Positions 1 to 64,000 of a stretch of 64,000 nucleotides of DNA are shown in pieces. The notes below the pieces were generated by a model. The model saw only the letters and a program-made list of their open reading frames with translations, ran no database searches and was not told the origin of the DNA. The DNA lies in the IMG/VR virus record IMGVR_UViG_3300022751_000017, positions 27,187 through 91,186 of that record. The stretch is one strand, 5' to 3'. Source of the DNA: a virus. Position numbers and translations under genes: made by a program. The number at the start of each line of letters is the position of its first letter. Position 1 is the first letter of the stretch.

Positions 1-393
1 TGGGAGAGGGGGCAAAAATAGCTGTCAGAATTTACAGTATGTGCTTTCTCAGTCGATCTATAAGACACATCCAATAATCATGGGATGCAGTTGCACCCTT
101 TGCAAACAGTAGTGGATGCGGATTCTGGAGAGCTGGCGTATGGATTTGGGATAGTGACTTAGTTTGTACCGCTATTCCCATGGCGGATAGTTTACTTTCA
201 GAAATAGTAATGTCAGATGCCGTCTTTAGTGTGCTTTGCATAACAAAAATGTTTTAAATTTGTGATGCAATTTTATTTAAAGCGAAAAACCTCCCCACCT
301 GCTAAGTGGGGTTTTTCGTTTGTGGCTTAAAGGTAATCATATTTAAAAATACTTTTCAGTTTTTCACCTGTATAAAAATGTGAGAAATATTTT

Positions 394-401
394 TAGCTTT
401 G
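394..401 (+). promoter_or_regulatory. Bacteroidota sigma70 -7 box (TAGCTTTG)
   Basis: Matches TAnnTTTG; intergenic, upstream of the structured leader and OMP gene. Confidence 0.55.
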
Positions 402-539
402 CAAATTACCTTTTAAAATGCTATACGTATGAATATATAAAAAACATTGGCGACTTTTATCTTTTATACGCTTTTCCCTAAATTACCACCTTTACAAAAG
501 CTTATCCACGCTCGATATAAATAGATATGCCTAAATTAT

Positions 540-21416: not shown

Positions 21417-24062
21417 ATGTTCTTATTAAGGGAATGGATTGAGACCAACGAGGGTGAAAAAAATATTGAGTGGGCTAACCGTATCATCTCATTTGTGCGG
21501 ATGTATATGTCGCCATTGGTCAATCTTGATTCTGCTGAGATGGGTATGAACTACCTGCTCGGGCGCCAGGATATGTCTCCTATACGCAACCTGTTCCAGA
21601 ATCCTATAGCCCTTAATCTGAACAACACCACATACGGTAATACAGGATACGGTAGAGTGTTTGGCCCCAATGGGCAGCCGGTAAAGCCCGAAGAGCGCAA
21701 TCTGCATCCTGAGATGTTAGGTGTTGAATTCCGCTCATTACCTGTAATGGAAAAGCTGAGGAACATGCTGGTGGCGGAGATGAAAAAAATGGGGGTAGTG
21801 CTCACCGTGAAAAGCGATGACCCTACCGCTACCATCAACAGGAAAAAGGACGAGGCGTTCATTAAGGACAGGCACAATATAGAAGGGCTTTTAAATTATA
21901 TTTATACCTCCATAGGCGAAGCCCCGTTCAAGATAGAAGAGCACGAGGCAAGGTTCGGGGAGAAGCCAGACAATGGCAACACTCAGGATTTTCAGCGTAT
22001 GAGTCTAAATCCTGGGAATCCATCTGATGTGGATTTCTTTATGCGTAATTTCCATAAGCTGGATGCGGAAATGGCGGCGGAGAATCCTATTAATTACTTC
22101 ATGAGATTTAATGAGGTAGAGGATATATTCTTTGAAAACTGGACTACAGACCTGGTGGCAAAAAAAGCTATTGCCGGGCAGCAGTACGTAAGTAAGCTAA
22201 ATGGAGCAATAAAGTTTGATTATCTCACTCCGGAGACAACGTACATATACGGTGGTGGGAGGAGAAAGGATTTTGATGATGCAAATGCCAAGGCATACCA
22301 GCAGAATATTACCATAAAAGATCTACTTGACAGGATAGGTGATGAATTCGATTTTAATAAAGAGCTTAATCTGCTTTTTCAGGCAGTTTATACCTGCAGC
22401 CAAGGATCAATTGATATTACCGGTATAGGTACAGACGCCCGTAATGGATGGTTTTGTTCAGCGCGCACAGGCACTAAGTACTCCTACCGGGATTTTATGG
22501 ACTTTAAGGTGTCTTTCGGATACATGGAGTGGATCAGCGCAAATGAGACAGATTATGGTGCTGAAGCAAACCTAACAGGTGACAGAAAGTTCGATGAGGA
22601 CAAGAGCACATTTTCTTATGGTGGGTCTGGAGGGGAAGAGTCTCCTGAAAAAAGGTACGCAAAAAAAGCGCGCTACGAGGTGCCTACATACAAGGCCTAC
22701 TATCTTGTTCTTAGTTCTTATGAGCAGCGGATATTTGATTTTGGCAAAGTAACTTACCAGCAGATAGAAGGGTACAATGACTTTAACTCAAACTGGACCA
22801 TACTCACTTACAAAGAGATAGGAGATAGTATTGCTATCAACTGCGCCCCTTTTGTAGACATCATCAATGAGTGCTGGTATAAATGGAAGTACGAGGTTCG
22901 CAAGGCAAAGCCCAGGGGGACTGATTACAACTATGACAGCCTTCTGGATATTGCTGAGGATACCTTTTCTGATACCAACATGACCCAGGCAGATAAGATA
23001 CAGAAGATGGTGTCTTGGCTAGATGCATCTGCCAATGGTATGTGGAAATTTCCGCAGATAGATGGGAAGATAGTAGCTATGTCCAACAATGCGCTGAATA
23101 TAGATAAGCCAAACGGACTGACTGCAGAGATCATGCGCTGGTGGGAAATGCTCATCAAGTCATGGGAGCAGATGCTATCGGTAGTAGGCCTTGATGCGCC
23201 CCTAAGGCAGGGTGATCCCGGCAATGCAAGGGATAGTATGAATAATCAGTTCAAGGCTCTGGAATATAGCCAGAACAATACTTATTATATCCCGGACAGC
23301 CTTACGTATATGGCGCAGAAGCTGGCTACGCGTACTATGCTGCAGGTTCAAGACATTATTCAGTTCAAAGATCATGATACCCTGGCATTTAAATTCCTTG
23401 CGGATGCTGTTGGAGAGGATTGTCTTGCCAGGATATCGCAGCTAGGCAAGAAGGCCATGCACCGGTATGGTATATTCGTGGAGAGCCTTAACCAGGCGCC
23501 ACAGAAGGCTAAGCTGGATGCGAGAATAGATGCCGCAATACAGAATGGTAAGATCAGCAATGCGGAAGCGCTAATGCTGGATGAAATAAAAAGCCTCAAG
23601 AGCAAGGCGCTAATGCTGGCCTATTTTGAGCAGCGCAATGCATCTCTTGTGCAGAAGAACGCTATGGAAATGCAGCAAGCCCAGGCGCAGCAAGCCCAGG
23701 CGCAGCTTCAGGGTGAAAAGGAAAACATTTTGCTCAAGGGCAACCTTGAGATTGAGAAGGCAAAGGTTGAAGGTAGCTTCGCGCTGCAAGGGCACATGAT
23801 CACACAGCAAGGCGGCATGGCTAAGCAGGAGATGAAGCATAGTGCAGATAGCAGGCAGATATACGAACAGGCTCAAGCCAATGTGATGGAGCAGCAACAG
23901 AGCCTTAATGATACCGGCAAGACTACACCGCCGGCGCAATCCGCAATAGTGCCTACGCCATACAGCAACCCTATTAACCAGATACCGCATCAGTCCGGCA
24001 TCCAGCAGTCGATGGCTGATTCCCAGCCGATGAGTACTGAACAGGCTGCGATGATTCCATAA
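21417..24062 (+). CDS. Portal protein (crAss-like)
   Basis: 881 aa, helical, Gln-rich C-terminal barrel (QQAQAQQAQAQ); position upstream of scaffold and MCP. Confidence 0.82.
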   Translation: MFLLREWIETNEGEKNIEWANRIISFVRMYMSPLVNLDSAEMGMNYLLGRQDMSPIRNLFQNPIALNLNNTTYGNTGYGRVFGPNGQPVKPEERNLHPEMLGVEFRSLPVMEKLRNMLVAEMKKMGVVLTVKSDDPTATINRKKDEAFIKDRHNIEGLLNYIYTSIGEAPFKIEEHEARFGEKPDNGNTQDFQRMSLNPGNPSDVDFFMRNFHKLDAEMAAENPINYFMRFNEVEDIFFENWTTDLVAKKAIAGQQYVSKLNGAIKFDYLTPETTYIYGGGRRKDFDDANAKAYQQNITIKDLLDRIGDEFDFNKELNLLFQAVYTCSQGSIDITGIGTDARNGWFCSARTGTKYSYRDFMDFKVSFGYMEWISANETDYGAEANLTGDRKFDEDKSTFSYGGSGGEESPEKRYAKKARYEVPTYKAYYLVLSSYEQRIFDFGKVTYQQIEGYNDFNSNWTILTYKEIGDSIAINCAPFVDIINECWYKWKYEVRKAKPRGTDYNYDSLLDIAEDTFSDTNMTQADKIQKMVSWLDASANGMWKFPQIDGKIVAMSNNALNIDKPNGLTAEIMRWWEMLIKSWEQMLSVVGLDAPLRQGDPGNARDSMNNQFKALEYSQNNTYYIPDSLTYMAQKLATRTMLQVQDIIQFKDHDTLAFKFLADAVGEDCLARISQLGKKAMHRYGIFVESLNQAPQKAKLDARIDAAIQNGKISNAEALMLDEIKSLKSKALMLAYFEQRNASLVQKNAMEMQQAQAQQAQAQLQGEKENILLKGNLEIEKAKVEGSFALQGHMITQQGGMAKQEMKHSADSRQIYEQAQANVMEQQQSLNDTGKTTPPAQSAIVPTPYSNPINQIPHQSGIQQSMADSQPMSTEQAAMIP

Positions 24063-24105
24063 ATAAAAGTGCCCTCAATATTGAGGGCACTTTTATTTAT
24101 GGAAT
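24054..24105. repeat. Perfect 52-bp palindrome (probably also a bidirectional terminator)
   Basis: ATTCCATAAATAAAAGTGCCCTCAAT|ATTGAGGGCACTTTTATTTATGGAAT; spans both convergent stop codons. Confidence 0.95.
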
Positions 24106-60936: not shown

Positions 60937-61029
60937 AGCAACTATTAAACATATTGTACATTATTTATTTCATATTTGTTTACATAATGTATTAATACTT
61001 GAAGTCCATGTTAAAACCCCAATATTTAT

Positions 61030-61320
61030 TCTCCCCTTTCCCGGTGCCATCGCCACCGCTGCCCTATAGCACCCCGAACCCTGACCCCCCAAAGAAACAA
61101 CCCCCACAAAGCGAAGCACCACACCTACCCAGGCACCACCACAGAGCACAAGAGGCAAGAGACAGAGGAGCGGAACACATCCACAGAGAGACCAGGAGGC
61201 AGCCAAGGAACGCGGCAAGGAACGGAAGGAGGCAAGGCACTTGGAGGAACTACTTCACACCCGAGGGAGGCCGGAAGGAAGGGGAGGGGGTCCACCGAAG
61301 GGGGAGGGGGGAGGGCGGAA
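61030..61320. other. Strongly skewed non-coding strand-switch region (C-rich, then T-depleted, then G-runs)
   Basis: Only 2 T in 61083-61240; five G-runs in 61281-61315. Confidence 0.75.
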
Positions 61321-61398
61321 TTGTACTGGTGGGTATAGCGATTTCGTATGCACTATAAAAAAATATAATTTTCAGAAGCCAAAATTTTTTCAGAAAAA

Positions 61399-61884
61399 AT
61401 GAACACACTTTTCGAACGCACAACAGATGGTAAGGATGAATGGCTTACCCCGCCAGAGATAGTTAGATCCTTAGGTATCTTCGATTTAGACCCATGCAGC
61501 CCGATAAATAGGCCTTGGGACACGGCAAAACAGCATCTTACCATTGAAGATGACGGACTTAGCGCAGCGTGGGCGCAGGAGCACCGAATTTGGTGCAACC
61601 CTCCGTATGGCAACCAATGTAGCCTATGGATAAAGAAACTGGCGGGACACGGGAACGGTATCGCCCTAACATTCGCCAGGACAGAAACTAAGATGTTCTT
61701 TGAATCCATTTGGAATAAGGCTCATGCGGTGCTTTTTATAAAGGGAAGAATCAGGTTTTACCATGTAAGTGGAGAGCAGGGAGGCACTGCCGGAGCACCA
61801 AGTATCCTCATCGCTTATGGTCAAGAAAATGCCGAAGCACTAAAAAATTGTGCTATAAAAGCCAAATTTATAACACTCAAGTGA
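61399..61884 (+). CDS. Phage DNA N6-adenine methyltransferase (phage Dam family)
   Basis: DEWLTPP, FDLDPC, DGL...W, IWCNPPYG, ARTET, FIKGRIRF. Confidence 0.92.
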   Translation: MNTLFERTTDGKDEWLTPPEIVRSLGIFDLDPCSPINRPWDTAKQHLTIEDDGLSAAWAQEHRIWCNPPYGNQCSLWIKKLAGHGNGIALTFARTETKMFFESIWNKAHAVLFIKGRIRFYHVSGEQGGTAGAPSILIAYGQENAEALKNCAIKAKFITLK

Positions 61885-61915
61885 AATAATATTCTTATTA
61901 TTCGCACAATAATGC

Positions 61916-61923
61916 TATATTTG
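61916..61923 (+). promoter_or_regulatory. -7 box TATATTTG
   Basis: Consensus match; implies the HTH gene starts at 61945. Confidence 0.55.
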
Positions 61924-61944
61924 CTCGAATTAATAGCACATCAA

Positions 61945-62142
61945 ATGCAAAAAGTACTTGAAGGCATAATGAAGCGAGAAAATGTGTCAGCTGAAAAGCT
62001 ATCCGATTGGTGTAAATTTTCTCCTACAACCTTTCGCCGGCAGTTACGCAGAGAAATAAAAATGGACGTCTCCGTTTTTAGCGAAGCCCTGGGAAAGTTA
62101 GGGTACAAAATACTGATCGTTAAAAATGAAGATATAGTTTAA
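61945..62142 (+). CDS. Cro/CI-like HTH protein
   Basis: MKRENVSAEKLSDWCKFSPTTFRRQL...LGKLGYKI pattern. Confidence 0.7.
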   Translation: MQKVLEGIMKRENVSAEKLSDWCKFSPTTFRRQLRREIKMDVSVFSEALGKLGYKILIVKNEDIV

Positions 62143-62147
62143 CTTTG
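62140..62147 (+). promoter_or_regulatory. -7 box TAACTTTG followed by two leader hairpins
   Basis: Consensus match; hairpins TAACCACTC/GAGTGGTTA and ATGGGGTGCG/CGCATCCCAT plus T-run before 62251. Confidence 0.5.
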
Positions 62148-62250
62148 TGAACAATAACCACTCACTTCCTTGGCCGGCGAGAGTGGTTAGCAATAACCTC
62201 CAAATGGGGTGCGTAGTAGGCCAAGTGCTGCGCATCCCATTTTTTATTTT

Positions 62251-62721
62251 ATGCCAAGAATATCAAGGATAGTTAAAAAATTTTTGGATAGCGGCGCCAA
62301 GTTCCATTCTGGCAGTGGATTATATGTATGGAGCAACGGAGATATAAATGCTGATAAAATATACCAGTCAGGTAAATATCCACAAGTGATAGACTGGGAT
62401 GGCAGAAAATGGATGGTTCATCGATTGATTGCGGAGTGCTTCATTCCAAATCCAGATAACAAGCCTGTAGTTAATCATATAGATGGTGATAAGTACAACT
62501 ATAAAATCGAAAATCTGGAATGGGCAACACATAAAGAAAACGTATGCCATGCCCGGCGCACCGGATTAAATAAGGGGCCGGCAAACTTCAAGCCAGACCA
62601 AATATTAAGAATCAGGGAACTAAATGCAAATCTATACGACTTAGCTGCAGAGTATAAAGTTCCATATCATGTAGTCCATAATGCCCATTTTCTAAAAACT
62701 TATAAAAACAAATTCAAATGA
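62251..62721 (+). CDS. HNH homing endonuclease (I-HmuI/NUMOD4-associated type)
   Basis: VHRLIAECFIPNPDNKPVVNHIDGDK.N...ENLEW.T..EN. Confidence 0.92.
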   Translation: MPRISRIVKKFLDSGAKFHSGSGLYVWSNGDINADKIYQSGKYPQVIDWDGRKWMVHRLIAECFIPNPDNKPVVNHIDGDKYNYKIENLEWATHKENVCHARRTGLNKGPANFKPDQILRIRELNANLYDLAAEYKVPYHVVHNAHFLKTYKNKFK

Positions 62722-63185
62722 AGCCAGCACAGTTAATTGTAACAAAAAAGTATCCAATAGAGCTACCATCAGTAAGCTATTATGGAGCCCCTTCTGTATA
62801 TAAAGTATGGTTTGGTAAATCTTATTTTATATGGAAGGGTAAGTCGCTGAAGCAGTCTGCAGAGCAGCTGTCTGAAAGCATAGAAAGATACCTTCGATTG
62901 GGTAAAGACGATCCGGACAGCGTATTGTATGTGCTGGGAGCATTTATTCGTAAGACCAGGTGTCTGAGAGGTAAGATAGAAATGGTAGACTCAGATATGA
63001 GGAAAGAAGGGTCATCCGTGGCCATTGATATATATAGGATGCTTAGACTGGAGCAGGACTTGCTTAATGAGGCCATGGAGAACAAGAAATGCCTAAACTA
63101 TAACCAACAGGCATATATTCCCAAATGGATGGAGAATGAGGCGCCTGGTGAAGTTCAAAAATTCTTAAGAAACTGGAAGAAATGA
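62718..63185 (+). CDS. Hypothetical protein, possibly a degenerate GIY-YIG fold
   Basis: SVYKVW....YFI.KG...LEQ.LL...CLNYN pattern. Confidence 0.5.
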   Translation: MKPAQLIVTKKYPIELPSVSYYGAPSVYKVWFGKSYFIWKGKSLKQSAEQLSESIERYLRLGKDDPDSVLYVLGAFIRKTRCLRGKIEMVDSDMRKEGSSVAIDIYRMLRLEQDLLNEAMENKKCLNYNQQAYIPKWMENEAPGEVQKFLRNWKK

Positions 63186-63718
63186 AACCTATAAAAATAA
63201 CATCGATACCCATTTTCCCTTCTACAAATGTAAGAAGCACGCAAAATGAAAAATGGCTTTTTAGAGTATCTGAAGAATACCTAAAGCAGCTGGATGACAA
63301 TAGAGTTGATACACATGGCAAGCCAGGCCATTTAGCGGCAAGGAAGCGGCAGCTTGAGAAGTACAACGCATATAAGGAAGAGCTCAGGAACTGGGCTAAG
63401 AAAAATGAATTTATAATGCCTATTGGATATTTTGCTGTACACTTTCATGTACCCTTCCCGAAATCGTGGAGAAAGCCCAAGCGAGCCAAAATGCTGCATT
63501 CGCCACACATGAATACTCCTGATGCCGATAACTACATTAAAGCGCTATTCGATGGCATTATGCCCAGGAGGAATAGAGTAGCCGGCCAACAAGGGTCTGA
63601 TGACCGAAAGATACACTGCTACTCAATGTTCAAGGTGTGGGTTGAGGAAGGGGATGAAAAGATAGTCATTGCAGAGTATGATCCATCAGAATATAGCATG
63701 GTCTTCAGCCTCCATTAG
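63182..63718 (+). CDS. rusA: RusA-family Holliday junction resolvase
   Basis: F.VPFPKSW...H..TPDADNYIKALFDG...DDRKI. Confidence 0.85.
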   Translation: MKPIKITSIPIFPSTNVRSTQNEKWLFRVSEEYLKQLDDNRVDTHGKPGHLAARKRQLEKYNAYKEELRNWAKKNEFIMPIGYFAVHFHVPFPKSWRKPKRAKMLHSPHMNTPDADNYIKALFDGIMPRRNRVAGQQGSDDRKIHCYSMFKVWVEEGDEKIVIAEYDPSEYSMVFSLH

Positions 63719-63739
63719 ATACCAACAATAATGCCTTTA

Positions 63740-63771
63740 AAAAATAGCTGCCAAATATGGCGGCTATTTTT
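63740..63771 (+). terminator. Intrinsic terminator
   Basis: AAAAATAGCTGCCA-aata-TGGCGGCTATTTTT. Confidence 0.75.
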
Positions 63772-63834
63772 ATGCCAAATAAAATACCTTAAAATAAAAT
63801 AAATAAAACAGAAAATTTGGAAATGTCGAATATA

Positions 63835-64000
63835 CTACTCCGCACTTCGCACAATGTGTTTTGCCCAATTGAGTATGTGTGCGAGATGTATTCTGTAAGT
63901 AGTATCCCTACGGGAATATATTCGAAGAATTACTACTTACAGAATACATCTCGCACACATACTCAATTGGGCAAAACACATTGTGCGAAGTGCGGAGTAG
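63835..64000. repeat. Perfect inverted repeat with arms of at least 70 bp and a 26-nt two-hairpin tip (cut by the window end)
   Basis: 63835-63904 is the exact reverse complement of 63931-64000. Confidence 0.95.

Follow-up and report, generated by a model that had tools for sequence, protein, structure and literature searches.

The 64,000-nucleotide stretch analysed here, referred to as the window, comprises bases 27187–91186 of an IMG/VR soil-phage record of 91,186 nt, and its right end carries a group of rightwards-oriented genes followed by a large inverted repeat (Table 1; positions are those of the window unless the record is named). The final 2.9 kb encodes a Dam methylase, an HNH endonuclease, a 155-residue protein and a Holliday-junction resolvase of the RusA family, with the RusA, HNH and Dam genes all lying within 2.5 kb of the palindrome. 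The RusA gene had been named as the neighbour of the palindrome in an earlier reading of the sequence without database searches (the sequence-only reading), and the profile match agrees with that assignment; its DADN..K motif corresponds to the E. coli RusA catalytic core. The RusA stop codon is 117 nt upstream of the left arm of the palindrome, and between the small hairpin with its T run and this arm there is a 63-nt AT-rich spacer with a G+C content of 19%. Because the RusA operon has a likely terminator of its own, the large palindrome is not needed for termination.

Table 1. Features in the right-terminal part of the window, in window positions.
Feature	Position	Strand	Evidence and details
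Internal copy of the left-terminal inverted repeat	61024–61125	+	Sequence comparison; k=31 fork exactly at 61024
Terminal segment R, 2,881 nt	61024–63904	+	One k=31 contig, depth 51, about 1x
Dam-type DNA adenine methyltransferase	61399–61884	+	Profile match
HNH (homing-type) endonuclease, candidate nickase	62209–62721	+	Profile/sequence match
RusA-family Holliday-junction resolvase, 178 aa	63182–63718	+	PF05866, 43.2 bits (cut-off 22.8); DADN..K motif
Small separate hairpin followed by a T run, likely RusA-operon terminator	63740–63771	+	Inverted-repeat search, sequence
Left arm x	63835–63904	+	43% G+C; Logan k=31 contig terminus at 63904
Tip S, asymmetric, 26 nt	63905–63930	+	Mini-hairpins 63905–63915 (loop TAC) and 63920–63930 (loop GAA), with ATAT between
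Right arm x′	63931–64000	+	Perfect reverse complement of x; final base is the final base of the record

A PDB sequence search with RusA gave no match and no RusA relatives were found in IMG/VR, while a RusA search of JGI metagenomes recovered three short contigs, two of which contain both the 155-residue protein gene and the RusA gene, with RusA inverted and no hairpin. In two unrelated metagenome contigs, L077 (3–3043) and L078, the RusA homologue is 56–57% identical and converges on a homologue of the 155-residue protein gene; in L077 the next gene encodes a 694-residue protein in which a PD-(D/E)XK nuclease is fused to an FtsK/HerA-like ATPase. The core of the HNH protein provides the sole match among cultured phages.

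The palindrome itself consists of two arms of 70 nt each that are 100% complementary in an inverted-repeat search and are separated by 26 nt, in agreement with the perfect arms and spacer described in the sequence-only reading. At 166 bases it is by far the top local inverted repeat in the 64-kb window, the runners-up being pairs of 26 nt and 18 nt, and the G+C content jumps from 19% to 43% precisely where arm x begins. The minimum-energy fold of the 166 nt as single-stranded DNA (z = −26 relative to shuffled sequences) is a long stem bearing at its tip two 4-bp stems with 3-nt loops, and thus recovers the two mini-hairpins and the 11+4+11 arrangement of the spacer that had been proposed (TCCC-TAC-GGGA, ATAT, ATTC-GAA-GAAT). 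On the accompanying proposal that the shape looks organised rather than random, layout and energy differ: among shuffled 26-mers, 0.3% adopt a two-hairpin layout of 8 bp or more, whereas the fold energy of the 26-nt tip is just −1.8 kcal/mol, with 17% of shuffles being equal or better. The T-shaped tip is suggestive, not compelling, and on its own is weak evidence of design. The arms do not extend beyond the window as had been thought possible, since base 64000 of the window is base 91186, the last of the record, the end of the second arm being set by that of the record. There is no second copy of the arm or tip elsewhere in the 91,186-nt record. Matches of the palindrome to Rfam were dismissed because miRNA-precursor models fit any long hairpin.

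An inverted repeat is also present at the left end of the record, where bases 1–102 are the reverse complement of window positions 61024–61125, with 101 of 102 positions identical and the mismatch lying 5 nt from the end. Our first impression of these 102 bases as left-terminal poly-G junk was dropped on recognition of this internal copy. The leftmost gene (157 aa; record bases 57–530, minus strand) meets no stop codon in the unique region; it reads on for 46 nt into the left inverted copy, from which its 15 final codons and its stop derive. This places the copy within the functional genome and makes a chimeric origin unlikely. A comparison of the two record ends revealed neither a direct terminal repeat nor a circular overlap. 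We note that each terminal strand has GCGAAG some 11 nt from its 3′ end (record bases 10–15 and window positions 63985–63990) and that at the left end it is part of a full GCGAAGC mini-hairpin motif, this similarity between the two ends being marginal (p ~0.04).

The internal copy lies within a T-poor, strongly strand-asymmetric tract that extends from 61024 to about 61330 and is at first C-rich, then composed of A, C and G only, and then marked by G-runs. It sits between the divergent early and terminal operons, and may be an origin, a packaging site, or an invasion target for the left 3′ end. A palindrome or other structure at 61000–61400 was considered and rejected, as the region is not a palindrome and folds worse than shuffled sequences. 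GC skew tracks gene orientation and carries no information on the origin. Exact-DNA scans of IMG/VR with the arm, the tip and the tract gave no match.

From its predicted proteins the phage is best read as an orphan, uncultured podophage that probably infects Bacteroidota. Its large terminase subunit is 23–31% identical to those of Cellulophaga phi38:1-like phages and Flavobacterium elemo phages and, like phi38:1, it encodes GroEL/GroES and a junction resolvase. Terminase relatives in IMG/VR are at most 31% identical, and a single relative, at 23%, is present in GTDB genomes. Among the five large distant relatives (terminase identities of 23–31%), three have direct end repeats or assembly overlaps and two have no end repeat; none has an inverted end, and the search for the same T-shaped tip that the sequence-only reading had advised shows it to be common to none of the relatives examined. 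The phage proteins are singletons from one data set, and the terminal structure is known from one sample. CheckV places the record at 70% complete. Profile searches of the 91-kb record found no DNA polymerase of family A or B and no ATP-dependent ligase, such that either host enzymes are used or the record is incomplete. The record does encode a DnaB-like helicase and a protein resembling a methylase/primase.

One public run, X1, a leaf-litter metagenome from 2018, contains the stretch, and we compared its Logan k=31 contigs, which represent a second assembler applied to the same or a sister data set, with the record over window positions 61000–64000. Segment R forms one of these contigs. Two further contigs, of 36,978 nt (depth 42.6) and 8,348 nt (depth 49.9), terminate in the same 30-mer at 61024–61053, and the bases that precede this 30-mer in the 8,348-nt contig are the reverse complement of record bases 103–132; both ends of the unique region are linked to base 61024 in the k=31 graph. 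No other contigs abut either end of the 2,881-nt contig, and there is no loose end at 63904. The contig halts at the last base of arm x without extending into the spacer, as the k-mer fork produced by a fold-back would have it do. No Logan contig covers the tip or x′, which is uninformative because an 86-nt loop unitig may be filtered out. With arms of 70 nt, the flip and flop orientations of the tip comprise the same k-mers. A second run, X2, from soil, contributes two short contigs (95–97%) inside the HNH and RusA genes, with no bearing on the ends or the habitat. A separate 52-nt perfect palindrome with zero spacer is located at 24054–24105, directly past an 881-aa gene, and the 36,978-nt Logan contig begins at about 24076, showing that the k=31 graph breaks at this palindrome too.

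These contigs can be compared with noise-free k-mer graphs, at k=127 and k=31, of four candidate molecules. An open linear molecule with the sequence of the record yields at k=127 an unbranched unitig of 91,186 nt that is the whole record, the lack of a branch following from x′ being shorter than k; at k=31 R ends at 63904, and the R/U depth is about 1. If only the right end is closed as a hairpin, the k=127 unitig spans 1–91090 with the loop separate, R again ends at 63904 at k=31, and the R/U depth is 1. A molecule with full 2.9-kb inverted terminal repeats (ITRs) and two hairpins and a circle of the form U-R-S-R′ behave alike, each giving an 88,359-nt unitig at k=127, R as 61024–63904 at k=31, and an R/U depth of 2.0. 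The ratio of R depth to flank depth in the data is 1.02–1.20 and the record passes through R in one piece, and the models with kilobase-scale ITRs and with a circular palindrome are therefore rejected despite the pox-like topology; the circle U-R-S-R′ is ruled out by the approximately 1x depth of R together with the 91,186-nt record. The models left standing are those of a linear genome whose terminal segment is single-copy and whose right end is palindromic, as either an open 166-bp duplex or a closed hairpin that a small number of short fragments read round. The sample's reads include the palindrome, coverage of the DNA stops at it, and the terminal segment is single-copy.

Several other explanations of the right end bear on these data. 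If the genome were of the poxvirus or rudivirus style, R would be a 2.9-kb ITR present at both ends and closed by hairpins, with the assembler having reduced the second copy to stubs; the unique region does run into base 61024 of R at both of its ends, R does turn back at 63904, and a Holliday-junction resolvase is encoded, but the depth of R is 51 against 42.6 and 49.9 where a twofold excess is required, the unique region at k=127 would be an 88,359-nt unitig and not one of 91,186 nt, and the left copy extends for only 102 nt and has a mismatch 5 nt before it stops. We consider such a genome highly improbable. It is very unlikely, too, that the palindrome is an internal inverted repeat, serving as a terminator, a regulatory site or a cruciform origin, at which an incomplete contig broke off because long hairpins are hard to sequence. 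The CheckV estimate, the failure to find a DNA polymerase gene and the direct end repeats of distant relatives would suit this explanation; however, sequence continuing past x′ would show as a fork at 63835 in the k=31 contig, yet this contig is unbroken from 61024 to 63904 with no abutting contig, RusA has its own terminator, and the graph accounts for the unique region at both of its ends. Of the roles offered by the sequence-only reading, namely a telomere, an origin or a resolution site, the dead end of the independent assembly at 63904 favours a DNA end, whereas an internal cruciform origin does not fit.

The same reading had named an artefact as the alternative to a biological structure. 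An origin in the assembler is weakened by the agreement of two assemblers using different k and by the open-linear path at k=127, leaving a fold-back formed during library preparation, which we judge to be rather unlikely. Here the genome would have a plain end in or just after the 26-nt tip, and a few chimeric molecules, arising from end repair, ligation or PCR, would have caused a back-extension of 70 nt in both assemblers. Rare k-mers at a dead end have no competitors, so that contigs become extended by them; the stub is shorter than k=127, no Logan contig runs over the tip or x′, and one sample only is available. On the other side, arm x starts at a sharp composition boundary, as expected of a discrete element and not of a stub cut at random, and, the tip being asymmetric and the S/x′ junction free of microhomology, snap-back priming from either mini-hairpin would have yielded a different sequence. 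The second, gene-bearing inverted copy at the left end is also unlikely to be chimeric, and a genuine DNA end at this site would still be required. The likeness to the fold-back stubs of de Bruijn graphs, in which an inverted repeat shorter than k lies at the end of a metagenomic contig, is evident, but the asymmetry of the tip, the identity of the record with the unbranched path of an open linear molecule, and the stop of the k=31 contig at 63904 set the present case apart.

Comparison with viruses that have specialised ends gives partial likenesses. The phages of the N15 type, in which TelN or TelK acts on a tel palindrome, are likewise tailed and may have hairpin ends; however, protelomerase products are fully self-complementary, whereas the present tip has a non-palindromic spacer of 26 nt, and N15 virion DNA has cos ends. 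A six-frame search of the 91-kb record for the protelomerase catalytic domain of ResT/TelK (PF16684) gave no match at E≤1, and no tyrosine recombinase (PF00589) was found in the record. The parvovirus or AAV ITR sits at the very end of a linear genome and has a T-shaped tip that holds two small internal palindromes, as does the present palindrome, whose arms in the extended duplex would equal the distance from nick site to axis. It differs in that this is a 91-kb dsDNA phage with terminase packaging and not a 5-kb ssDNA virus, in having cross arms of only 4 bp, and in being present at one end only, and no match to an HUH Rep nickase was obtained at E≤1 with the three families searched (PF08724, PF01446 and PF05840). 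With poxviruses, chloroviruses, ASFV and rudiviruses the phage would share a linear dsDNA genome, an incompletely paired terminal loop and a virus-encoded Holliday-junction resolvase, here of the RusA family; those viruses have identical kilobase-scale ITRs at both ends, whereas the depth of the terminal 2.9 kb in this phage is that of a single copy and the left copy spans 102 nt. Protein-primed invertrons such as phi29, PRD1 and adenovirus have identical short ITRs at their extreme ends, whereas here the left repeat has its partner 2.9 kb inwards of the right end; protein-primed polymerase (PF03175) and family B polymerase (PF00136) are absent from the record.

Our preferred reading, held tentatively and with slightly less than even confidence, is that the record is a whole linear genome with both ends physical, and that its right terminus is a 166-bp palindrome with a T-shaped tip that is capable of folding back. 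The palindrome most likely marks a chromosome end able to fold back into a hairpin, a type that has not been reported among tailed phages. Because the ends have neither a direct repeat nor an overlap, some end-replication device is needed, and the most economical mechanism would be for the right end to prime by folding back or to carry a hairpin. That the end forms a hairpin in vivo, which enzymes act on it and how it serves replication are matters of inference. When the right end is single-stranded or breathing, its 3′ strand could snap back on x and act as a primer; alternatively, the end could exist as a closed hairpin. Copying around the tip would then generate a tail-to-tail dimer, whose palindromic centre could extrude a four-way junction, which RusA, encoded next to the end, could resolve. 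A site-specific nick 70 nt from the tip or axis, made by the HNH enzyme or the terminase, could instead regenerate the end. Such a scheme would resemble rolling-hairpin or terminal-resolution replication. At the left end the inverted copy could be used, for example, through invasion of the internal strand-asymmetric tract by the 3′ end. The complete combination, in which a tailed phage with unique ends has a T-tipped, parvovirus-like telomere resolved by RusA or HNH at one end and an inverted copy of an internal tract at the other, is possible but doubtful.

The known ways in which tailed phages deal with their ends are cohesive ends, terminal redundancy, headful permutation, host-DNA ends, terminal proteins or protelomerase. 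If the preferred reading of the right end is correct, this phage would have an end-replication strategy outside the recognised types, using neither a protelomerase nor a terminal protein, and phage biology would be joined to the hairpin telomeres of parvoviruses, poxviruses and rudiviruses. It would also follow that the short inverted stubs seen on metagenomic phage contigs, which are usually discarded as artefacts, can mark true termini and the completeness of a genome.
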